This document shows positions 866 to 61,117 of a stretch of DNA of 64,000 nt, one piece after another. A program made the position numbers and the translations under genes. This DNA comes from Heterodontus francisci (lineage: Eukaryota), in NCBI RefSeq assembly GCF_036365525.1, contig NW_027141363.1, positions 62,001-126,000 of the forward strand, written 5' to 3'. Each line of letters starts with the position of its first letter. The first letter of the stretch is position 1. The notes under the pieces are model-generated. The model made no database searches. It worked only from the letters and a program-made list of their open reading frames with translations, and was not told the DNA's origin.

Positions 866-1358
866 ATGTATCTGTTACTGAGTCTCATGGTCTTATTTCA
901 AAGTAAGGGATCTTTCTCACCTCCACCCCACACCCCCATTGTTTGTGTTAACAGCTCTCTTTCTTATTTTCTTTCTCTCTATCTTTCTCTCCTTCCTTCA
1001 TTCTTCACATCCCAGATTGTCCCTGTTCACTGACCTTCTTCTCTCCCGGTCTCTTCCTTCAGGCGCGATCTCAGCGAGGGTCCGCCAGACTCCCACCGCC
1101 GTCTCCAGATTTCCTGGGGAGGGAGTGGGACTGGAGTGCCGTGTGGAGGGCCAGAGTAGCGGTTACATGTTCTGGTACAGACAGGACCTGGGGAAGGAGC
1201 TGCGGCTGATGTTTTACTCCGCAGTTACACCAAGTGTGAACTCAGAGGGGACGGTGGAGGGTTTCACTGCCAAACGACCGACTGGTTCCCAGTTCAACCT
1301 GGAGTCCTCCAGCCTGCAGGAGAATCGCTCGGCGCTGTATTTCTGTGCCTGGAGTCTG
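866..1358 (+). CDS. TRBV: TCR V segment V1 (TRBV30/Trbv31-like); leader exon 866-902, intron 903-1062, V exon 1063-1358; apparently functional
   Basis: Leader ATG...MYLLLSLMVLFQ A|gtaagg; polypyrimidine tract+AG at 1061-1062; phase-1 join gives S-AISARVRQTP; Ig V-set Cys (LEC), WYRQ, YFCAWSL; followed directly by a 23-RSS. Confidence 0.92.
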
Positions 1359-1397
1359 CACAGTGACTCAGAGAGATGGAGCAGTTCAACAAAAACA
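1359..1397 (+). other. 23-bp-spacer recombination signal sequence (RSS) of V1
   Basis: CACAGTG (1359-1365) + 23 nt + ACAAAAACA (1389-1397). Confidence 0.95.
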
Positions 1398-13699: not shown

Positions 13700-16600
13700 T
13701 GAAATAAAGACAGAGAGAACGAGGGACAGAGAGAGATAGAGGGGGAGAGATATAGAGAGTCTCAGCGACAGAGAGATAGGGCAAGGAGTGATAGGGGGGT
13801 AAAGAGAGAGAGAGAAGGAGAGAGAGAAGGAGAGAGAGGGACAGACAAAGAGAAGGAGAGAGGGAGTGACAGAGAGGGAATGATAGCTGGAGGGACAGAG
13901 AGAGACACAGAGAGAGAGAGGCAGAGACAGAGATAGCAGGAGAGAGACGGAAAGACAGAAAGGGAATGACAGATGGAGGGCCATACAGAGAGACAGAGAG
14001 AGTGGCAGAGACAAAGATAGAAGGAGAGCGAGCGAGTATCAGGAAGGGAAAGACAAATTGAGGGACAGAGAGAGAGACAGAGAGAGAAGGAGAGAGATGG
14101 AGTGACAGGGAGGGAAGGATAGATGGAGGGATAGAGAGACGGAGAGACAGAGAGGGAAAGACAGATGGAGGGACAGAGAGAGAGACAGAGAGAGTGGCAG
14201 AGACAGAAATAGAAGGAAAGAGAGGGATTGCCAGGAAGGAAAGGACAGATGGAGAGACAGAGTGAGAGACAGAGAGAGAAGGAGAGAGATGGAGTGACAG
14301 GGAGGGAAGGACAGATGGAGGGATAGAGAGAGAGACAGAGAGCGAGACAGAGACAGAGTTAGAAGGAGACAGAGGGAGTGACGGGGTGGTGGAGGGAGAC
14401 AGATGAAGAGACAGAGAGAGAGAGAAGGAGAGAGATGGAGAGACAGGGAGGCAAAGACAGATGGAGAGACAGAGAATGAGAGGCAGAGATGGAAGGAGAG
14501 AGATGGCGTGACAGGCAGGGAAAGACAGATGGAGAGACAGAGAGGAAGACAGAGAGAGAAGGAGAGAGAGGGAGTGTCAGGGAGAGAAAGACAGATGGAG
14601 GGACAGAATGTGAGGGAGAGAGATAGAAGGAGAGGGTGGGAGTGACACAGAGGGTAATACAGATGGAGGGACAGAGAGAGAGACAGATATAGAGATAAAA
14701 GGAGTGAGAGTGAGTGACAGGGGGTGGGGAAGACAGATGGAGAGACAGAGAGAGAGAGACGGAGAGAAGGAGAGAGATGGAGTGACTGGCAGGGAAAGAT
14801 AGATGGAGCGACAGATAGAAAGACAGAGAGAGAAGGAGAGAGAGGGAGTGTCAGGGAGGGAAGGACATATGGAGGGATAGAGTGAGAGACAGAGAGACAA
14901 GGAGAGAGAGGGAGTGTCAAAGAGGGAAGGGCAGATGGAGAGACAGAGAGATAGAGACAGTGATGGAAGGAGAGAGAGGGAGGGACAGAGAGGGAAAGAC
15001 AGATGGAGGGTAAGAGAGAGAGTGAGAGAAATAGAAGGAGAGAGATGGAGTGACAATGAGGGAAGGACAGATGGAGGGACAGAGGGAGAGAGACAGAGAT
15101 AGAAGGAGAGAGATGGAGTGACGGAGGGGGGGGGGAGAAGACAGATGGAGGGACAGAGAGAGAGAGAGACAGAGACAGAAGGAGAGATATGGAGAGACAG
15201 AGAGGGAAAGAGAGATGGAGAGACAGAGAGTGAGAGGCCGTGATGGAAGGTGAGAGATGGAGTGACAGGCAGGGAAAGACAGATGGAGAGACAGAGAGAA
15301 AGACAGAGAGAGAAGGACAGAGAGGGTGTGACAGGGAGGGAAGGACAGATGGAGGGATAGAGAGAGAGAGACAGAGACAGAGTTAGAAGGAGAAAGAGGG
15401 AGTGACGAGGTGGGGGGGGGGAGACAGATGGTGAGACAGTGAGAGAGAGAGAAGGAGAGAGATGGAGAGACAGAGAGGGAAATACAGATGGAGAGACAGA
15501 GAGAAAGACAGAGAGAGAAGTACAGAGAGGGAGTGTCAGGGAGAGAAAGACAGATGGAGGGCCAGTGTGTGAGGGAGAGAGATAGAAGGAGAGGGTGGGA
15601 GTGACAGAGAGGGTAATACAGATGGAGGGACAGAGAGAGAGACAGAGATAGAGATAAAAGGAGAGAGAGTGAGTGACAGGGGGTGGGAAAGACAGATGGA
15701 GAGACAGAGAGAGAGAGACGGAGAGAAGGAGAGAGATGGAGTGAGGGGGAGGGAAGGACAGATGGAGGGACAGAGAGTGAGAGGCAGAGATGGAAGGAGA
15801 GAGAGGGAGTGTCAGGGAGAGAAAGACAGATGTAGGGACAGAGTGAGAGAGACGGAGAGAAGGAGAGAGATGGAGTGAGAGGGAGGGAAGGACAGATGGA
15901 GGGGCAGAGAGAGAGATACAGAGATAGAAGGAGAGAGAGGGTGGGACTGAGAGGGAAGACAGATGGAGGGACAGAGAGAGAGAGAGATAGATAGATAGAA
16001 GGAGAGAGATGGAGTGACAGGGAAGGAAGGACAGATGGAGGGACAGAGAGAGAGAGAGAGAGACAGCGATAGAAGGAGAGAGATGGAGTGACAGTGTGGG
16101 AAGGACGATGGAGGGATAGAGTGAGAGACAGAGAGGCAAGGAAAGAGAGGGAGTTTCAGGGAGGGAATGGCAGATGGAGGGATAGAGAGAGAGACAGAGA
16201 TAGAAGGAGAGAGAGGGAGGGACAGAGAGGGAAAGACAGATGGAGGGAAAGAGAGAGAGATAGAAGGAGAGAGATGGAGTGACAATGAGGGAAGGACAGA
16301 TGGAGGGACAGAGTGAGAGAGACAGAGATAGAAGGAAAGATATGCAGAGATAGAGAGGGAAAGAGAGTTGGAGAGACAGAGAGTGAGAGGCCGTGATGGA
16401 AGGTGAGAGAGGGAGTGACAGGCAGGGAAAGACAGATGGAGAGCCAGAGAGAGAGACAGAGCGAGAAGGAGAGAGAGGGTGTGACAGGGAGGGAAGGATA
16501 GATGGAGGGATTGAGAGAGAGAGACAGAGATAGAAGCAGAGAGTGGGTGTGACAGGGAGGGAAAGAGAAGTGGAGGGACAGAGAGATAGACAGGGATAGA

Positions 16601-19600
16601 GATAGAAGGAGAGAGAGGGTGTGACGCGGAGGGGAAGACAGATGGAGGGATAGAGTGAGAGGCAGAGAGAGAAGGAGAGAGATGGAGTGACAGGGAGGGA
16701 AGGACAGATGGAGGGATAGAGAGAGAGACAGAGAGCGAGGCAGAGACAGAGTTAGAAAGAGAAAGAGGGAGTGACGGGGTGGGGGGGAGACAGATGAAGA
16801 GACAGAGAGAGAGAGAAGGAGAGAGATGGAGAGACAGAGAGGGAAAGACAGATGGAGAGACAGAGAGTGAGAGGCAGAGATGGAAGGAGAGAGAGGGAGT
16901 GTCAGGGAGAGAAAGACAGATGGAGGGACAGAGTGTGAGGGAGAGAGATAGAAGAAGAGGGTGGGAGTGACAGAGAGGGTAATATAGATGGAGGGACAGA
17001 GAGAGAGACAGAGATAGAGATAAAAGGAGTGAGAGTGAGTGACGGGGGTGGGGAAGACAGATGGAGAGACAGAGAGAGAGAGGCGGAGAGAAGGAGAGAG
17101 ATGGAGTGACTGGGAGGGAAGGACAGATGGAGCGACAGATAGAAAGACAGAGAGAGAAGGAGAGAGAGGGAGTGTCAAAGAGGGAAGGGCAGATGGAGAG
17201 ACAGAGAGATAGAGACAGTGATAGAAGGAGAGAGAGGGAGGGACAGAGAGGGAAAGACAGATGGAGGGTAAGAGAGGGAGTGAGAGAGATAGAAGGAGAG
17301 AGATGTAGTGACAATGAGGGAAGGACAGATGGAGGGACAGAGGGAGAGAGACAGAGATAGAAGCAGAGAGATGGCGTGACGGAGGGGGGGGAGAAGACAG
17401 ATGGAGGGACAGAGAGAGAGAGACAGAGATAGAAGGAGAGATATGGAGAGACAGAGAGTGAGAGGCAGTGATGGAAGGTGAGAGATGGAGTTACAGGCAG
17501 GGAAAGACAGATGGAGAGACAGAGAGAAAGACAGAGAGAGAAGGACAGAGAGGGTGTGACAGGGAGGGAAGGGCAGATGGAGGGATTGAGAGAGAGAGAC
17601 AGAGATAGAAGCAGACAGTGGGAGTGACAGGGCGGGAAAGAGAAGTGGAGGGACAGAGAGAGAGACAGAGATAGAGATAGAAGGAGAGAGAGGGTGTGAC
17701 GGGGAGGGGAAGACAGATGGAGAGACAGAGAGAGAGAGACAGAGAGAGAAGGAGAGAGGGGGAGTGACAGGGAGGGAAGGACAGATGGTGGGATAGAGAG
17801 ACGGAGAGACAGAGAGGGAAAGACAGATGGAGGGACAGAGAGAGAGAGACAGAGAGAGTGGCAGAGACAGAGATAGAAGGAAAGAGAGGGATTGCCAGGA
17901 AGGAAAGGACAGATGGAGGGACAGAGTGAGAGACAGAGAGAGAAGGAGAGAGATGGAGTGACTGGGAGGGAAGGACAGATGGAGGGACAGAGAGTGAGAG
18001 GCAGAGATGAAATGAGAGAGAGGGAGTGACAGGCAGGGAAAGATAGATGGAGCGACAGATAGAAAGACAGAGAGAGAAGGAGAGAGAGGGAGTCACAGAG
18101 AGGGAAAGACTGTTGGAGGGACAGAGAGTGAGAGGCAGAGATGGAAGGAGAGAGAGGGAGTGTCAGGGAGAGAAAGACAGATGTAGGGACAGAGTGAGAG
18201 AGACGGAGAGAAGGAGAGAGATGGAGTGACAGGGAGGGAAGGACAGATGGAGGGGCAGAGAGAGAGAGATACAGAGATAGAAGGAGAGAGAGGGAGGGAC
18301 TGAAAGGGAAAGACAGATGGAGGGACAGAGAGAGAGAGAGAGATAGATAGAAGGAGAGAGATGGAGTGACAGGGAGGGAAGGACAGATGGAGGGACAGAG
18401 AGAGAGAGAGACAGCGATAGAAGGAGAGAGATGGAGTAACAGGGAGGGAAGGACAGATGGAGGGATGGAGTGAGAGACAGAGATAGATGAGAGAGAGGGT
18501 GTGTCTGGGTGGGAAAGACAGATGGAGGGACAGAGTGAGAGACAGAGAGAGAAGGAGAGAGGTGGTGTGTCAGGAAGGGAAAGGCAGATGGAGCGACAGA
18601 GTGGGAGACAGAGCGAGAAGGAGAGAGATGGAGTGACAGGGAGGGAAGGACTGATGGAGGGATAGAGAGAGAGAGAGAGAGATAGAAGGAGAGAGAGGTA
18701 GTGTCAGGGAGGGAAAGGCAGGTGGAGAGACAGAGAGAGAGAAAGACACATGGAAGGAGAGAGAGGGAGTCACAGAGAGGGGAAGACTGTTGGAGGGATA
18801 GAGAGAGACAGAGATAGAAGGAGAGAGAGGGAGTGTCAGGGAGGGAAAGACAGATGGAGGGACAGAGAGAGAGGCAGAGAGAGAAGGAGAGAGATGGAGT
18901 GACAGGGAGGGAAGGACAGATGGAGGGACAGAGAGAGAGGCAGAGAGAGAAGGAGAGAGATCGGGTGATGGTGGGGGCGGGAGCGGCGAGACTGATGGAG
19001 TGACAGAGAGAGAAGGAGAGAGTGGGAGAGACAGAGTGAAAGACAGATGGAGAGAAAGAGAGAGAGAGGCAGAGATGCAAGCAGTGAGGGAGTCACAGGT
19101 AGGGAAAGACAGATGGACAGACAGAGAGAGACAAAGATAGAAGGAGAGAGAGGGAGTGTCAGGGAGGGAAAGACAGATGCAGGGACAGAGAGAGAGAGAC
19201 AGAGAAAAAAGGGAGAGAGAGGGAGTGTCAGGGAGGGAAAGACAGATGGCGGGACAGAGAGAGAGGGAGAGATAGAAGGAGAGAGAGGGAGAGACAGAGA
19301 GGGAAAGACAGATGGAGGGATAGAGAGAGACAGAGATAGAAGGAGAGAGAGGGAGTGTCAGGGAGGGAAAGACAGATGGAGGGACAGAGAGAGAGACAGA
19401 GAGAGAAGAAGAGAGAGGGAGTGTCAGGGAGGGAAAGACAGATGCAGGGACAGAGAGAGAGAGACAGAGAAAAAAGGGAGAGAGAGGGAGTGTCAGGGAG
19501 GGAAAGACAGATGGCGGGACAGAGAGAGAGGGAGAGATAGAAGGAGAGAGAGGGAGAGACAGAGAGGGAAAGACAGATGGAGGGATAGAGAGAGACAGAG

Positions 19601-22600
19601 ATAGAAGGAGAGAGAGAGGGAGTGTCAGGGAGGGAAAGACAGATGGAGGGACAGAGAGAGAGACAGAGAGAGAAGGAGAGAGATGGAGTGACAGGGAGGG
19701 AAGGACAGATGGAGGGATAGAGAGAGAGACAGAGAGCGAGGCAGAGACAGAGTTAGAAGGAGAAAGAGGGAGTGACGATGTGGGGGGGGGGGGAGACAGA
19801 TGAAGAGACAGAGAGAGAGAGAAGGAGAGAGATGGAGAGACAGAGATGGAAAGACAGATGGAGAGACCGAGAGTGAGAGGCAGAGATGGAATGAGAGAGG
19901 GGGTGAGACAGAGAGGGAAATACAGATGGAGGGACAGAGAGAGAGCGATAGATAGAAGGAGAGAGGGGGTGAGACAGAGAGGGAAATACAGATGGAGGGA
20001 CAGAGAGAGAGCGATAGATAGAAGGAGAGAGTGGGAGAGACAGAGAGGGAAAGACAGATGGAGGGACAGAGAGAGACAGAGATAGAAGGAGAGAGACGGA
20101 GTGACAGGGAGGGAAGGACAGATGGAGGGACAGAGAGAGAGAGACAGAGAGAGAAGGAGTGAGGGAGATTGACAGGAATGGAAGGGCAGATGGAGGGATA
20201 GAAAGAGAGAGAGACAGAGATAGAAGGAGAGAGAGGGAGTGACAGAGAGGTAAAGATAGATGGAGGGACTGAGGGATACAGAGAGAGAGGAAGAGACAGA
20301 GATAGAAGGAGAGAGAGGGACATAGAGGGAGGGATCAAGAAAGAAGGAAATATGGTTGAAACCATTGCTGTATTGGGAGCGAGGGAGGAAGGGAGAGATG
20401 AAAAGAAAGAGAGACGGGGAAACAGAAAGGGAGAAATGGTGTCATAGAGACACAGACAGAGTTATGGACAGAGGCAGTGAAAGAGAGGGAGAGACAGAGA
20501 GAGAGAAAGAGGGAGAGACAGAGATAGAAGGAGAGAGAGGGAGTGACGGGGAGGGAAAGACAGATGGAGGGGCAGAGAGAGAAGGAGAGAGATGGAGTGA
20601 CAGGGAGCGAAAGACAGATGGAGGGACAGAGAGAAACAGAGAGGAAGAGGTAGAAATAGAAAGGGAGACAGAGATATGGAGAGGAAGATAAAGAGACAGT
20701 GAGAGAGTGAGATAGAGAGAGAGAAAGGCAGAGATGGTGTGAGAGAGACACAAATAGAGTCATGGACAGAAGCACAGAGAGAGAGAGAGTAACAGAGAGA
20801 GAGAGAGAGAGAGTCAGAGAGAGAGAGAGACAGACAGAAAGAGAGAGATAGAGACACAGAAAGAAACAGACAGAAAGGGAGCGTCAGTGAGAGAGATGAG
20901 ATAGAATGAGAGAGAGGGAGTGACAGGCAGGGAAAGACAAATGGAGCGACATAAAGAAAGACAGAGAGGGAAGGAGAGAGAGGGAGTATCAGGGAGAGAA
21001 AGACAGATGGAGGGAAAGAGAGAGAGAGAGACAGAGATATAGATAGAAGGAGAGAGAGTGAGTGACGGGGATGGGAAGACAGATGGTGAGACAGAGAGAG
21101 AGACAGAGAGAGAAGGAGAGAGAGGGAGAGATGGAGAGGGAAAGATAGATGGAGGGACAGAGAGAGAGAGACACAGAGATAGAAGGAGAGAGATGGAGTG
21201 ACAGGGAGAGAAGGACAGATGGAGGGATAGAGTGCGAGATAGAGAGACAAGGAGAGAGATGGAGTGACAGGGAGGGAAAGGCAGATGGAGGGATAGAGTG
21301 AGAGACAGAGATAGAAGGAGAGAAATGGAGTGTCAGGGAGGGAAGGACAGATGGCGGGACAGAGAGAGAGGGAGAGATAGAAGGAGAGAGGGGGTGAGAC
21401 AGAGAGGGAAAGACAGATGGAGGGACAGAGAGAGAGCGATAGATAGAAGGAGAGAGTGGGAGAGACAGAGAGGGAAAGACAGATGGAGGGACAGAGAGAG
21501 GCAGAGATAGAAAGAGAGAGAGGGAGTGTCAGGGAGGGAAAGACAGATGGAGGGACAGAGAGAGACAGAGATAGAAGGAGAGAGAGGGAGTGTCAGGGAG
21601 GGAAAGACAGATGGAGGGACAGAGAGAGAGACAGAGATAGAAGGAGAGAGACGGAGTGACAGGGAGGGAAGGACAGATGGAGGGACAGAGAGAGAGAGTC
21701 AGAGAGAGAAGGAGTGAGGGGGATTGACAGGAATGGAAGGGCAGATGGAGGGATAGAAAGAGAGTGAGGCAGAGATAGAAGGAGAGATGGGAGTGACAGA
21801 GAGGTAAAGACAGATGGAGGGACTGAGGGATACAGAGAGAGAGGCAGAGGCAGAGATAGAAGGAGAGAGAGGGACAGAGAGGGAGGGGTAAAGAAAGAAG
21901 GAAATATGGTTGAAACCATTGCTCTATTGGGAGCGAGGGAGGAAGGGAGAGATGAAAAGAAAGAGAGACGGGGAAACAGAAAGGGAGAAATGGTGTCATA
22001 GAGACACAGACAGAGTTATGGACAGAGGCAGTGAAAGAGAGGGAGAGAGGGAGAGACAGAGAGAGAGGGAGAGACAGAAACAGAAGGAAAGGGAGTGACA
22101 GGGAGGGAAAGACAGATGGAGGGACAGAGAGAGAAGGAGAGAGATGGAGTGACAGGGAGGGAAAGACAGATGGAGGGACAGAGAGAGAGAGACTGAGAGG
22201 AAGCGGTAGAAATAGAGAGGGAGACAGAGATACTGAGAGGAAGATACAGAGACAGTGAGAGAGAGAGATACAGAGAGAGAATGGCAGAGATGGTGCGAGA
22301 GAGACACAAATAGAGTCATGGACAGAAGCAAAGAGCGAAAGAGTAACAGAGAATGAAAGAGAGAGAGAGAGAGAGAGTCAGAGAGAGAGAGAAAGACAGA
22401 AAGAGAGAGATAGAGACACAGAAAGAAACAGAGAGAAAGGGAACGTCAGTGAGAGAGAGAGACAGAGACAGTGATAGCGAAAGACAACGAGAGAGAGAGA
22501 TGGGGAGAAAGAGTTGCAGGGGAAGAGAGAGAGATAGAGGGGGAAGAGAGATATAGAGGGGGCAGAGAGAGATAGAGGGGGAAGAGAGTGATGGGGAGAG

Positions 22601-23410
22601 AGAGAGGGGGGAGAGAGAGAGGGGGAGAGAGAGAGGGGAGAGAGAGAGGGGGAGGGGATGAAAGAGAGGGGAGAGGGAGAGAGAGGGGGTGAGAGGGAGT
22701 GAGAGGGGGTGAGAGAGGGGTGAGAAGGGGTGAGAGGGGGAGAGGGCGAGAGAGGGGGAGAGGGCGAGAGAGGGGGAGAGGGCGGGAGAGGGGGCGAGGG
22801 AGAGAAAGGGGAGAGAGAGAGAAAGGGGGAGAGAGAGAGAAAGGGGAGAGAGAGGGGGGAGTGGGAGAGAGAGGGGGAGGGAGAGAGGGGGAGGGAGAAA
22901 GAGGGGAGAGGGAGAGAGAGTGGGGAGAAAGAGCTAGAGGGGGAGAGGGAGATAGTGGGGTAGATAGAGGGGGGAGAGGGAGAGAAAGGGGGAGAGGGAG
23001 AAATGGGGAGAGAGAGAGAAAGGGGAGAGAGAGGGGGGAGTTGGAGAGAGAGGGGGAGGGAGAGAGAGGGGGAGGGAGAAAGAGGGGGAGAGGGAGAGAG
23101 AGTGGGGAGAAAGAGTTAGAGGGGGAGAGGGAGATAGAGGGGTAGATAGAGGGGGAGAGGCAGAGAGAGCGGGAGAGGGAGATAGAGGGGGAGAGTGAGA
23201 TGGATGGGCCGAGGGAGATCGAGGGGGAAGAGGGAGATCGAGGGGGGAGAGGGAAATCGAGGGGGGAGAGGGAGATTGAGGGGAGAGAGGGAGATCAAGG
23301 GGGAGAGGGAGATCAAGAGGGAGAGGGAGATAGAGGGGAGAGGGAGATAGAGGGGGGCGAGGGAGATAGAGGGGGAGAGGGAGATAGAGGGGGAGAGAGA
23401 GATGGGGAAG
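13700..23410 (+). repeat. ~9.7 kb polypurine GA-rich complex satellite (~60-70 bp unit, higher-order blocks)
   Basis: Recurrent gacagatggagggacagagagagagacagagatagaaggagagagatggagtgacagggagggaa; block 20100-20880 repeated at 21640-22450. Confidence 0.95.
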
Positions 23411-27100: not shown

Positions 27101-28440
27101 ATGCAGTGTTTCCAACATTGCAACAGTGACGACCACTTTAACAATCAATTCACTGAGTGTCAAATGTTCCCGATTCATTTCAGTTCATTTTACTGAAGTT
27201 CTGAGTTTCGATTTGTCTCTCTGTCTCACTCCAGCTTTCTTTCCCTCTGTCTCTCTAATTAAACCTTTAATAGTTAAAAACACACACAGCAGGGTGATTT
27301 GTTGTTGGTTTAAATGGTGAGACAGAAGTATTTCATAACTATTTTCAGTCAACACTACATATGAGATAGAGGGACAAAAACAGATATGGACAGAGAAAGA
27401 GAAGGAGAGACAGGGGACGAATGGGATAGGAACAGAGAGAGATACAGAGACAGTGGAGATAGAGATACTGAGACAGACACACACACACACACACACACAC
27501 ACAGAGGTGGAGGTTGCTGTCACAATCCTTTTATCCTTTGGTTTATTAACTGTGATTTGTTTGTATTTGGGTGTTGCTGAGAGAGTGTCTGTGTAACCGA
27601 GGGCAATTCCTGGGCTCTTGCTGTGCTATTTTGTTTAACAATGTATTTTAATCAATTTTCTCTCTCTCCGTCTTGCCTTAGGAATTTTCATTCTGAAAAC
27701 TGCATGGTGAAGATGAAAAGAGGGAAAGTTTGGGACGAGGAATCCTTGGACAGGAGCTTCCTCCTGAGGGGACGGACTGAGGCCTTGTCCACAGGCTGCA
27801 CCCAAAGGGCCCACGTGAGTTGTGTCTGTTTATTAGGCCGTGGTTTAATTTCATGTCTGGGGTCCTGGGCTAACCAGTTCCTGTCGGATTGGGGCCCTGC
27901 TGTTTTAAATAGGTTGAAAGCCTGGGGTTAAAGGAGCAGCCTTGGTGCAAAACCTTGGTTGAAGTGGCACCATTGCTGGGATCTTGCTGTGCACAGCTTG
28001 CCGGCTGTTATCACACTGCTGCTTGTGGGATCTTGCTGTGTACCAATGGCCTGCAGCATTTCCAACAGTGCAACAGTGACGAGCACTTTAAAAATTAATT
28101 CATTGAGTGTCAAATACTTCTGTGAATCAGCAATGAAATGGCTGAAATGTGAAGGTTTGGAAAGGCTTGTTCTCATTCCCGAATAATACTGGTGTCTTAG
28201 GCTGTGGGCTGAATTTGACAGTGAAATGAATCACCTGGCAGAGTTTCAGGGATGGGAATGTGGATTTCTCTCTCTATCCTTCTATGGGAGAGAGGATGGG
28301 GGTCACCAGTGTTTGTGTGTTTTTACAATGAGGCAGAAACAGATGTAGAGAGACACACAGAGAAATAGAGAGAGAGAGAGAGAGAGAGAGGGAGGGAGAG
28401 ACAGCAGGAAATGACAGTGTAAACACATCCACACTTCCCA
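24150..28440. repeat. Degenerate locally repeated units with Deu-SINE-derived cores, interrupted by the CR1 at 25072
   Basis: Recurrent ttgctgggatcttgctgtgcac / gtgggatc(g/t)tgctgtg and ttcattttactg(t/a)agttctga blocks at ~24160, 24420, 24650, 24910, 27080, 27185, 27970. Confidence 0.55.
25072..27085 (+). mobile_element. Young 5'-truncated CR1 LINE; RT ORF 25471-26997, TAG at 25465; (TTCTTTG)n tail
   Basis: 508-aa RT with GVPQGSVLGP, FADD; near-identical to 10391-11268 over the overlap; tcttg at both junctions. Confidence 0.95.
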
Positions 28441-45168: not shown

Positions 45169-45344
45169 AGGAGACAGCTTGGGAGGGAGAGATGATGTGA
45201 GAGAAAAACAGAGTAAAGTATTCAGACAGAATAAGAGTGACAGAGAGAGGGAGAGACAGTGACAAGGAGAGGGTCAAAGAGAGACAGAGACAGAAAGAGA
45301 GAAGGAGAGGCACAGAAAGGGAGAGCGAGAAAGAGAGAGAGATA

Positions 45345-47110
45345 TCACACGGTGGAGATACAATAATAAGAGAACCACACAGAGACACTCCCTGCGGAGA
45401 TACTATAATAACAGACCCACTCAGTCACTCTCCTTTGTGGAGATGCTATGATAACAGACCCACTCAGTAGCTCTCCCAGTGGAGATACTATAATAACAGA
45501 CACACTCACAGACTCTCTCTCTAACGATACTATAATAACAGACTCACTCGGTGACTCTCCCTGTCGAGATACTATGATTACAGACGCACTCAGTGAATCT
45601 CCCTGTGGAGATACTGCAATTTCAGATCTACTCACTGACTCTCCTTGTGGTGATAGTTTAAGAACAGACCCACTCAATGATTGTCCCAGTTGAGATACGA
45701 TATTTACAGACCCACTCAGTAACTCTCCCTGTGGAGATACGATAATAACAGACCAACTCAGTGACACTCCTTGTGGAGATACTATAATAACAGTGCAACT
45801 CAGTGACTCTCCTTGTGGATATACTATAATAACAGACCCACTCAGTGACTCTCCCTGTGGAGATAGTGTAATAACAGACCCACTCAGTGACTCTCCCTGT
45901 GGACATGCGACAGCAACAGACCCACTCAATGATTGTCCCAGTTGAGATACTATAATTGCAGACCGACACAGTGACTCCCCTCGTGGAGATGCAATAATAA
46001 CAGACCCACTCAGTGACTCTCCCTGTGGAGATACTATAATAACAGACCCACTCAGTGACTCTCTGTGGAGATACTATAATAACAGACCGACTCAGTGACT
46101 CTCCCTGTGGAGATACTATAATAACAGACCCAATCAGTGACTCTCCCTGTGGAGATACTATAATAACTGACCGACTCAGTGACTCTCCCTGTGCAGAGAC
46201 TGCAATAACAGACATAATCATTAACTCTCCCTGTGGAGATACTGTAATACCAGAGACACTCAGTGACACTCCCACTGGAGATACCATAATAACAGACACA
46301 CTCAGTTTCTCTCCCTGTGGAGATACTATAATAACAGACCCACTCAATGACTCTCCGCGAGGAGGTACTATAATAAGAGACACAATCATACACTCTCCCT
46401 GTGTAGATAATACAAAAACAGACCCACTCAGTGGCTCCCCCTGTGCAGATGCTAAAGAAACAGATTCACACAGTGACTCTCCCTGTGGAGATACTACAAC
46501 AACAGAGACACTTACTGACTCTCCCACTTGAGATACTACAATAACAGACATAATCATTCACCATCCCTGCGGAGATACTATAATAACAGCCGCACTCAGA
46601 GACTCTCCCTCAGGAGATACTATAATAACAGACCAACTCAGTGACCCTCCTTGTGGAGATATTATAATAACAGACCCACTCAGTGACTCTCACTGTGGAG
46701 ACACTGTAATTTCAGATCCACTCACTGACACTGCCTGTGGTGATAGTATAAGAACAGACCCACTCAATGAATGTCCCAGTTGAGATACTATAATTACAGA
46801 GAGACACAGTGACTCTCCCTGTGGAGATGCAATAATAACAGACACAATCATTCACTCTCCCTGTGGAGATGCAATAATAACAGACCCACAAAGTGACTCT
46901 CACTGTGGAAATACTATAATAACATACCCACTCAGTGACTCTCCATGTGGAGATACTATAACAACAGACGCACTCAGTGACTCTCCCTTTGGAGATACAC
47001 TAATAACAGACCGACTCCACTGGGAGATTCACTGAGTGGGTCTGTTATTATAATATCTCCACAGGGAGAGTCACTGAGTGGGTCTGTTATTATAGTATCT
47101 GCACGGGGTG
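45345..47110 (+). repeat. 42-bp minisatellite (~40 units); last ~2 units inverted (~47025-47110)
   Basis: Unit ctccctgtggagatactataataacagacccactcagtgact; 14-aa periodic ORFs. Confidence 0.95.
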
Positions 47111-49024: not shown

Positions 49025-49063
49025 GGTTTTTGTTGAACTGCTCCATCTCTCTGAGTCACTGTG
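49025..49063 (-). other. Consensus 23-RSS of V2
   Basis: CACAGTG (49063-49057) + 23 nt + ACAAAAACC (49033-49025). Confidence 0.96.
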
Positions 49064-49516
49064 AAGACTCCAGGCACAGAAATACACGGCCGAGTGATTC
49101 TCCCGCAGGCTGGAGGACTCAAGGTTGAACTGGGAGTCAGTTGGTCTCTCGGCGGTGAAACCGCCCACCGTCCCCTCTGGATCTACATAGTTAGCAGTAC
49201 TGGAGTAAAACATCAACAGCGGCTCCTTCCCCAGGTATTGTCTGTACCAGTACATTCTAGCAGTACTGGTGCCCTCCAATGTGCACCTCAGTTCCACTGC
49301 CTCTCCACGCAATCTGGAGACTGCGGCGGGAGTCTGGTGGATAGTCTGTGAGTTCACATCTGGGAGAGAGATGGAGAGAAGAGCAGATCAGTAAACAGGA
49401 AACTTCTGGGAATGAAAGGGAGACAGGGAGAAGAGAGGAAAGTTATTAACGATAGTTTTTGTATTTCACACTCACTTACAATGAAACAGGATTATCAGAC
49501 CCAGTAACAGATTAAT
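49064..49516 (-). CDS. TRBV: TCR V segment V2 (TRBV30/Trbv31-like); leader 49516-49480 begins ATT instead of ATG; V exon 49359-49064 intact (ORF or possible pseudogene)
   Basis: SQTIHQTP...CTLEGTS..MYWYRQ..FYS..RPTDSQFNLESSSL..YFCAWSL; T|gtaagt donor and cccag acceptor; leader homologous to that of V1. Confidence 0.88.
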
Positions 49517-50609: not shown

Positions 50610-50717
50610 TTTTTTTGTTGAACTGCTCCATCTCTCTGAGTCACTGTGATCTCTCCAGGCACAGAAATACACGGCCGAGTGATTCTCCCGCAGGCTGGAG
50701 GTCTCCAGTTTGAAGTT
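50610..50717 (-). pseudogene. Truncated TRBV30-like V relic with intact 23-RSS (50648-50610)
   Basis: NFKLETSSLRENHSAVYFCAWRD then CACAGTG + same 23-nt spacer + ACAAAAAAA; 5' part replaced by CR1 sequence. Confidence 0.9.
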
Positions 50718-53986: not shown

Positions 53987-54720
53987 TCCCATCACCAGCT
54001 GCACAGAAATACACCGCCTCGTCCGTGGCGTTCACACTCTCCATCGTCAGAGTGGATTTCTTATTGTCCAGAGTCCTGCTAATAACAAACCCGCTCTTAA
54101 AACCCTCTTCATACTGAGGTTCATTGCTTAGAAAGTTAAACCCGATTAACAGGAATCCTCTGCCGGGGGACTGACGATACCAGTACATGTAGTCGCGAAT
54201 CTTTCCTTTCTGCAGACAGTTCATTTCCACTGATCCTGGTTGTTTAACAGCCAGTGACTGAGGCCATTGATGTATCACATCACCCCGGCAAACACCTAGA
54301 AAGAGAAATTAGAGGGAATGAACTAGTATCGATGGAGTTACAATTGCGACGATGGACGTTGGTGTTGCACCAAATTAACGACGGAAATTCGGTCTGTGTC
54401 CTAATTTCCGACAAGCACCTGGATCTTTACAAATGTAAAATAGAATTGTGGAATCCACAAGTTTGCAAGTGGGTGCAAACATTAAAGAGTTAACATCATA
54501 TTAATAACACTTGTCTTCCCAAACTAGGGGACAGATTAATGAGTTCACTGTCTTGTATGAAATAATCGATTACTGATTTCACAAGTCACCACCGCTGAGT
54601 TTTATTAAGATCATTAATCATCCCTTTCAGTTGATCAAATGTAGAAGAGTGATTGGGACAGAATTTTAACCTACTCAGCCCCAGAAGGGAAATAACAAAG
54701 ACGATGAAACTGAAAGGCAT
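53987..54720 (-). CDS. TRBV: TCR V segment V3; leader 54720-54675, V exon 54295-53987; apparently functional
   Basis: MPFSFIVFVISLLGL A|gtaggt; tttctag|GT-VCRGDVIHQWP...MNC...MYWYRQ...AVYFCAAGDG. Confidence 0.9.
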
Positions 54721-55791: not shown

Positions 55792-56597
55792 CTCCTTCAG
55801 TGGCGGCGCAGTAATACATCGCCCTATCTCCGGGGCCTGCAGTCTGAATTTTCAGAGTGCTCCTTTGAATGTCAGCTCTCACCACCTCGAATCGCCTCTC
55901 GAACTCTTCCTGGAAAGTAGGCTTGCTCCCAGACACGTCCGTCACCAGAAGCTGGGGGCCTTGCCCGTGGTGCTGGCGGTACCAGAGCATGGTGATGTGC
56001 TCCGTGTCCTTCTGCTGACAGGTCAGTGTTGCGCTCTCCCCATGTCCCACAGTCAGTTCACTGGGTGTCTGGGACACTGAGGCACATCGACAACAATCTA
56101 GGGTAGTGGGAAGGGAGGAAGAAAGGAAAGGGTCCAAGATTCAGTTAACGCAGCCACATCAGGAAAAGTCTGCAGTGCATCCCAGTGCATTTTCTGATCG
56201 AATATGAGCTCAGACAATCATCCAACATGTGAAGGAGGCCGTTCATCCTAGCAGGCCTGTGCTAGCTCTTTGAAAAAGCTATGCAATGAGTTCATTCCCC
56301 AACTTTTCTCATCTCAATTTAGTTTTAAATGTAATTTATTCCAGTTTTCTAAGAATAAGAGTGAGGTCCTGTCTGGCAGATCATGCACCGGTTATAGAAG
56401 CAAATATCAGTGCAAAGTAACTCAATGTCTGTTTCTATATGAAGGGGACAATGACAACATCAATGAACGATATTACATACGGATCAGTAAGTGTATTTCT
56501 TAAAGAAACTCACGTTAAATGAAACAATAGTAGCATTCTGAAGTTACTTACGCGGCATCAGCAATGAAAAGGCCCAGAGCAGGAGTTTGAATTCCAT
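55792..56597 (-). CDS. TRBV: TCR V segment V4 (distinct family); leader 56597-56552, V exon 56097-55792; apparently functional
   Basis: MEFKLLLWAFSLLMP C|gtaagt; ccctag|AT-CCRCASVSQTP...LTCQQ...MLWYRQ...DRAMYYCAATEG. Confidence 0.9.
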
Positions 56598-60411: not shown

Positions 60412-61117
60412 TCCCATCACCAGCTGCACAGAAATACACCGTCTCGTCCGTGGCGTTCACACTCTCGATCGTCAGAGTGGATTTCTTATTGTCCAGAGTC
60501 CTGGTAATAACAAACCCGCTCTTAAAACCATCTTCATACTGAGGTTCATTGCTTAGAAAGTTAAACCCGATTAACAGGAATCCTCTGCCGGGGGACTGAC
60601 GATACCAGTCCATGGAGTTGCGAATCTTTGCTATCTGCAGACAGTTCATTTCCACGGGTCCTGGTTGTTTAACAGCCAGTGACTGAGGCCATTGATGTAT
60701 CACATCACCCCGGCAAACACCTAGAAAGAGAAATTAGAGGGAATGAACTAGTATCGATGGAGTTACAATTGCGACGATGGACGTCGGTGTTGCACCGAAT
60801 TAATGACGGAAATTCGGTCTGTGTCCTAATTTCCTACAAGAACCTGGATCTTTACAACTGTAAAATAGAATTGTGGAATCCACAAGCTTGCAAGTGGGTG
60901 CAAACATTAAAGAGTTAACATCATCTTCCCAAACTAGGGGACTAGGGGATAGAGTTCACTATCTTATATTAAATGATTGATTGCTGAATTTCACAGTTTT
61001 ATTGAGATCATTAATCATCCCTTTCAGTTAAACAAATGTAGAAGAGTGATTGGAACAGAATTTTAACCTACTCAGCGCCAGAAGGGAAATAGCAAAGACG
61101 ATGAAACTGAAAGGCAT
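60412..61117 (-). CDS. TRBV: TCR V segment V5 (recent paralogue of V3); leader 61117-61072, V exon 60720-60412
   Basis: MPFSFIVFAISLLAL A|gtaggt; VIHQWP...CLQIAKIRNSMDWYRQ...VYFCAAGDG. Confidence 0.9.

Follow-up and report, generated by a model that had tools for sequence, protein, structure and literature searches.

How old is the backward V gene of the mammalian TCR-beta locus, and where did it come from? The window analysed here, a stretch of 64,000 nucleotides (positions 62001-126000 of contig C1317 in a 6.0-Gb assembly), carries V segments whose nearest named proteins are from sharks. The original prediction assigned two of them, V1 and V2, to the lineage of mammalian TRBV30/Trbv31, with several copies in both orientations and an origin before the split of the jawed vertebrates. 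We hold with good, if not complete, confidence that V2 is a germline shark TCR-beta V segment of the TRBV30 lineage and is likely untranslated, that it belongs to an amplified family associated with an inverted V-J-C remnant, and that the inverted position of this family is probably ancestral.

V2 itself is composed of four elements, given here in window positions.

49480-49516, minus strand: V2 leader exon, 37 nt, first codon ATT, not ATG
49360-49479, minus strand: V2 leader intron, 120 nt, GT-AG, from the sequence and the splice joint in reads
49064-49359, minus strand: V2 V exon, open frame, TRBV30 (CAWS) clade, from Pfam, PDB and trees
49025-49063, minus strand: V2 23-RSS, consensus heptamer and nonamer, 0 mismatches

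The motifs by which V2 was originally recognised (SQTIHQ..CTLEGTS..CAWS) are in the sequence as read. V2 has the V-set domain (Pfam E value 1.1e-13), leader exon, GT-AG intron and 23-RSS of a TRBV gene segment, and it lacks the initiation codon of a functional TRBV gene: in-frame stops lie just upstream of the ATT, and there is no open upstream ATG. Among 60 family copies checked, V1 included, 59 start with ATG and only V2 with ATT, and contigs of Logan runs X5 and X6, whose reads are family-level, have ATG at this position. Given its ATT start codon, the V2 copy is probably able to rearrange but probably not translated, unless that base is an assembly error. V2 is an ordinary, probably silent copy, one among hundreds.

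The window contains the following other V sequences.

866-1358, plus strand: V1, with leader (866-902) containing ATG, intron (903-1062) and V exon (1063-1358)
1359-1397, plus strand: V1 23-RSS, one nonamer mismatch
50610-50715, minus strand: 5'-truncated relic that keeps ~67 nt at the 3' end of a family V, with 23-RSS
53987-54295, minus strand: V3, a control TRBV with 23-RSS, from a different family that falls outside the TRBV30 clade
55792-56097, minus strand: V4, likewise a control TRBV with 23-RSS from a family not in the TRBV30 clade
60412-60720, minus strand: V5, a control that duplicates V3 at 90% identity, also not in the TRBV30 clade

V1 and V2 are 64-65% identical and belong to one clade, and the orientation of V1 opposes the local array. 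V3-V5 are three V from two other families, at 54-61 kb of the window. The relic has equivalents adjoining other V2-type copies (L003, L018, L022 and L023). No V genes were found in the window stretch between V1 and V2. In the V1 subgroup (window 866-1397, L031-L056), seven copies are identical in protein. Elsewhere, the window has a long G/A-rich tandem array (13700-23410) and an array of ~42-bp tandem repeats with heptamer-like words inside (45340-47020).

The chain to which these segments belong is indicated by the genes to which they are linked. On C1317, the minus strand left of the window carries V genes, two D segments (D1 at 28348 and D2 at 19051), at least 18 J segments and a C exon (3181-2843). 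D1 and D2 both carry 12/23 RSS. For the C exon of the next unit, the best single-stretch PDB matches are TCR beta chains, and a transmembrane (TM) exon with the conserved lysine follows. The family is accordingly linked to Dbeta with 12/23 RSS, to Jbeta and to a Cbeta with TM lysine, as is characteristic of TRBV genes. V2 has the same sense as D1 and lies 83 kb upstream of it; V1 points the opposite way. A search for D segments with the mammalian-type D pattern found none; shark D segments differ. Between C1317 28348 and 7647 (L067-L069), a D1-J and a D2-J block feed one Cbeta, and the two D cores differ. The output of a C1-set family scan was dominated by Ig and MHC loci, and long regular arrays of near-identical C1-set exons occur on C46 (16.27-16.87 Mb, with a ~16-kb period) and on C8 (115-125 Mb).

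Transcript evidence comes from four Logan runs (X5-X8) of one sample, taken to be RNA by guess, with reads assigned at family level (88% threshold). The leader-V splice (joint 49359/49480) is present in two of the four (X5 and X6), and two loose ends at the V end of Logan contigs match, again at family level, Jbeta segments of working units. A J-to-C splice was not observed in X5-X8. Family members are probably spliced and joined to Jbeta of this locus in RNA. The joins go to Jbeta segments that lie upstream of a Cbeta gene, in keeping with the predicted chain, and splicing to a non-beta constant region was not encountered. Assignment of V2 to the alpha, delta or gamma V is ruled out by the linked Dbeta, Jbeta and Cbeta, the V-J joins and the tree.

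RAG joins the 23-RSS of a V to the 12-RSS of a D. By the rules of V(D)J recombination, V2-type copies upstream of D-J-C in the same sense would join by deletion, and copies inverted behind Cbeta would, like TRBV30, rearrange by inversion; alternatively, the inverted copies could join by deletion into the next unit facing them.

Placement within the TRBV was assessed with searches and trees. A profile search over 1.84 billion representatives, with top relatives ranked per domain, gave as top-ranked named relatives V domains of Chiloscyllium, Scyliorhinus, Mobula, Hypanus, a mormyrid, reedfish ('TRBV30'), tarpon, sturgeon, newt, an Equus TRBV30 cluster and a caecilian; an unrelated turtle TRBV, at 79.7 bits, outscored the caecilian domain. 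A homologue search at query length returned no matches. For the first tree, the best 150 proteins and the named relatives yielded 224 V domains past filters and 160 after dereplication, and the best 110 of these were joined by the five window V (115 rows). The second tree has 75 hand-picked rows, with seven more own-genome V added. Tree rows were picked by similarity to the query family, mammalian TRBV30 is represented by horse only (no human TRBV30 or mouse Trbv31), and outgroup labels were partly assigned from reading the sequences. In the first tree, V1, V2 and the horse TRBV30 cluster belong to a 24-row clade with support of 100/99, with V3-V5 outside; in the second, the TRBV30 clade has support of 99/84 and appears in 100% of 200 bootstrap trees. 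The clade-mates of V1 and V2 are the horse cluster and V of reedfish, sturgeon, teleost, newt and caecilian, with the other window V families excluded, and rows labelled as other TRBV, TRAV/TRDV, TRGV and Ig V likewise stay outside; within the clade, the trees give no resolution.

Best matches point the same way. Against the PDB, the four best single-V chains score 68-71 bits, and the single-V beta chain listed after them reaches 46.6; three of the four are MEL5-type or show the SQTIHQ...CAWS alignment, and the fourth is 5xov_J. The human TRBV30 motif given in the original prediction is present in the alignment of chain 4jfd_E, and the MEL5 TCR is TRAV12/TRBV30 (PMC5887915). In reverse, V of the horse TRBV30 cluster, reedfish and newt each have V1 or V2 as top match out of 11 own-genome V sampled, in agreement with the forward search. 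The predicted grouping with TRBV30 is therefore borne out, via the horse cluster, by phylogeny and by reciprocal best matches, and the cross-species clade in both trees supports a lineage older than the jawed-vertebrate split. These comparisons support a family-level, many-to-one orthology, as judged from sequence, between the shark family and TRBV30.

Other V of C1317 bear on the breadth of the clade. Two further shark families (C1317 60062, 130228, 134842 and 138078-144923; L073, L092 and L093) are nested in the TRBV30 clade or branch from its base, one with WYRW...CAWS and a 43-nt leader, the other with CACS and a 49-nt leader, so that the clade appears already diversified in sharks. The TRBV30 clade stands apart from nearly all other TRBV in both trees, and a branch of the first (99/91) splits it, together with non-beta V rows, from other TRBV; the division between the TRBV30 clade and the rest may be the deepest TRBV split. 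A divergent V at C1317 166007-166288 (L096) groups with non-beta rows near the root, and its 64-nt leader equals in length that of bamboo shark TRBV18.

The original prediction counted at least three members, and three are indeed present in the window, V1 on the plus strand and V2 and the relic on the minus strand. As a family size, three is ruled out: the family occupies at least 277 distinct places on seven contigs, about 100-fold more, some of them with stops, unlike the single TRBV30-type gene of mammals. The predicted occurrence in both orientations extends to the whole family (154 places on the minus strand, 123 on the plus). The seven contigs total 8.5 Mb and contain 41 D segments and 21 open Cbeta exon-1 copies, which are 98-100% identical in amino acids. 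DNA around the Cbeta copies is 97-100% identical (median 97.9%), and one pair shows no difference at all. For 14 of the 21 Cbeta loci there is a partner at 99.7% or above, so retained haplotypes may inflate the copy number, perhaps doubling it, and some places may be allelic duplicates. Six Cbeta copies on the single contig C407, and two inverted units on C1317 that are ~2.5% apart over 14-25 kb, indicate genuine multiplication. About 13 Cbeta types are distinguished at 99.5% (from the nearest-neighbour list), and J variants differ among units. The block repeats suggest that the array would have grown as whole V-D-J-C units were duplicated segmentally, often in inverted orientation.

Two alternatives bear on this part of the account. 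The likeness to TRBV30 could be retained ancestral sequence or convergence, with the shark TRBV forming a radiation of their own; such a reading draws on an AU test in which forcing all elasmobranch TRBV together gave p=0.0505, a borderline value short of formal rejection, on identity to TRBV30 of just ~45% and on an alignment of 96 columns. The constrained tree is nevertheless worse by 38.8 log-likelihood units, both trees have a starred cross-species clade that excludes shark V3, V4 and other families, and best matches agree in both directions, and we regard a separate shark radiation as very unlikely. The many units might also be largely an assembly artefact, made of haplotigs or false duplications. 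The contigs are separate pieces of 0.3-2 Mb, and the identical pair and the 14 loci with near-identical partners are what such an artefact would leave, but it fits poorly with six Cbeta on one contig, the median pairwise identity, the ~13 types, and the divergence and differing J variants of the units, and is in our view improbable.

The TRBV30-type position (inverted, 3' of TRBC) is found in the family and not in V2, which lies 5' and in the same sense; V2 is thereby ruled out as the positional equivalent of TRBV30. Inverted family V lie 26-38 kb 3' of 17 of the 21 working Cbeta, the other four being at contig ends, and those V belong to a single subgroup of the family, with 24 copies. Of the V2-like places up to 100 kb from a Cbeta, all 85 on the 3' side are inverted and all 36 on the 5' side are same-sense; the V1 subgroup has the reverse orientation pattern within that distance (10/10 places). 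The inverted 3' arrays also contain other V families, both here and in bamboo shark, and the family also occurs 5' in the same sense, so the position is not family-specific.

Between the inverted V and the working C lies a second, broken J-C. In all ten units read, the family V is followed by a single J, which carries a 12-RSS-like signal, and then by a second Cbeta that is broken and divergent; no D segment was found between family V and J in any of the ten. One such unit lies on C1317 (L077 and L078).

C1317 325412, inverted behind a working Cbeta: relic J with a 12-RSS-like signal and splice donor
C1317 320955-317053, inverted behind a working Cbeta: frameshifted second-type Cbeta

An equivalent relic J and second Cbeta are present in L133-L152, and a TM exon is present in four of the ten units. 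With the C of catshark P0032 as query, ~17 broken copies of the second C type were found in the genome; among the matches listed, a copy lies 16-20 kb behind 13 of the 21 working C, facing them, and one further unit has a more decayed copy. The second C is open in catshark P0032, a gene model of family V, J and this C, and in whale shark P0159. Longer second-C queries against the PDB gave output dominated by multi-domain Ig chains; with a shorter query, nearly all best single-stretch matches are TCR beta chains. The inverted V-J-broken C block probably represents what is left of a second, convergent V-J-C unit, and its J-C part may be the site from which the mammalian backwards V gene arose.

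Bamboo shark (Chiloscyllium punctatum) provides a second elasmobranch locus, with two head-to-head D-J-C units, 37 V and an inverted V array 34-47 kb behind each unit (PMC10322711, Supplementary Table 3). The leader of the core family is 37 nt long, versus 43, 46, 49 and 64 nt in other families, and one family has no clear leader. By the published coordinates (PMC10322711), all 16 bamboo shark V with 37-nt leaders lie in the inverted 3' arrays, where they make up 16 of the 24 intron-defined V, against none of five in the middle array; family assignment in this species is by leader and exon lengths, not sequence, and the copies are not independent. Bamboo shark TRBV01_1 and TRBV02 have leaders of 58 and 40 nt, lengths that agree with the Chiloscyllium family proteins P0002 and P0021. 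Bamboo shark is thus like this shark in having inverted V arrays 3' of D-J-C, with family-length leaders only there, and unlike it in scale (2 units and 37 V versus ~21 units here); its table gives neither a family assignment nor a second C type in the gap (PMC10322711). Lengths of leader and exon indicate indirectly that the inverted 3' placement of the family is shared. Because it occurs both here and in bamboo shark, the backward TRBV30 position probably predates the shark-bony fish split and was probably present in the last common jawed-vertebrate ancestor.

The lineage could be shared and the inverted 3' position nonetheless have arisen separately, in elasmobranchs by inverted duplication with its own J-C and independently in bony vertebrates. 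TRB loci invert often, as in the head-to-head loci of salmonids and pike (PMC10464911) and the inverted clusters of newt (PMC12698447); axolotl members are called non-inverted in one source (PMC11754216), yet inverted axolotl clusters appear in another (PMC12698447). The mixed V families of the 3' arrays point the same way, as does the finding of the second C type in sharks only (one match, in a search of limited reach). Against repeated inversion, one clade is found on the same side and in the same sense in two sharks, amniotes and, reportedly, salmonids, and the two shark C types differ from each other (31-38% identity) as much as shark from teleost Cbeta (27-37%), leaving separate origins a possibility to be taken seriously, though not the one we favour. 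The second C could also be a gamma-like, D-less partner from the beta/gamma cis-duplication with inverted V after C that has been proposed (PMC12227049), instead of a second Cbeta. The absence of D in all ten units would suit it, as would the gamma-like row that joined the second C, on a flagged long branch, in a nine-row C-domain tree without a starred branch. D loss would be easy in a dead unit, however, the PDB matches are nearly all TCR beta chains, and the open shark versions are nearer teleost Cbeta (27-33% identical) than the sequence-labelled Cgamma row (19-21%), making a gamma-like partner highly improbable.

Parts of this picture have precedents. A multicluster TCR-beta arrangement was reportedly described for the horned shark by Rast and Litman in 1994. 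A likeness of V-beta families to human Vbeta20 and mouse Vbeta14 was reportedly noted in trout and axolotl papers of the 1990s; a literature search for backing of that likeness found none. An ancient clade of 3'-inverted TRBV common to amniotes, salmonids and some amphibians is already known, with squamate TREV as its sister (PMC11754216); nurse shark is included in that tree, and the accessible text does not state its placement. The amniote clade of human TRBV30, mouse Trbv31 and opossum TRBV28 (PMC2275272, PMC11754216) is shared by the shark family in our two trees, via the horse TRBV30 cluster. Searches that extended neither to subscription papers nor to seven supplements of PMC10322711 found no paper reporting TRBV30 orthology in a shark, or an inverted second J-Cbeta there; the accessible parts of PMC12529555, PMC5278385, PMC2685407 and PMC2192082 likewise have no statement on shark orthology or a relic J-C.

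The shark family resembles mammalian TRBV30 in its SQTIHQ...CAWS signature, its 23-RSS and its members inverted 3' of Cbeta; it differs in that V2 is 5' and same-sense and that a relic J and C stand between the inverted V and the working C. Squamate TRE (TCR epsilon) resembles the shark block in combining a TRBV30-related V with its own J and C, and differs from it in having D segments and in being a separate, expressed locus held to be squamate-specific (PMC11754216). Repeated V-D-J-C is shared with bichir, which has five tandem TRB units (PMC10322711 table), and with the head-to-head TRB pairs of salmonids and pike (PMC10464911), although ~21 near-identical units of alternating orientation over 8.5 Mb far exceed those loci.

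A more far-reaching model, which we offer tentatively and consider rather doubtful as a whole, would derive these arrangements from an ancestral jawed-vertebrate TCR-beta locus of two convergent units. The second unit, made of a TRBV30-family V, J and a divergent Cbeta, would retain an open C in catshark and whale shark, be decaying here and be reduced in mammals to the lone TRBV30/Trbv31, with squamate TCR-epsilon a possible relocated survivor.

TCR loci are usually described as translocons (PMC2275272), and a shark TCR locus of many repeated units, like shark Ig clusters, runs counter to that statement. With ~10-20 working D-J-C units, questions arise about allelic exclusion across units. 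The interest lies not in V2 itself but in the conserved backward position of its family and in the relic second unit. If this account is correct, the TRBV30 lineage, and probably its backward position too, would date to the root of the jawed vertebrates, which would give a concrete, testable origin to a feature of the mammalian TRB locus long regarded as odd.
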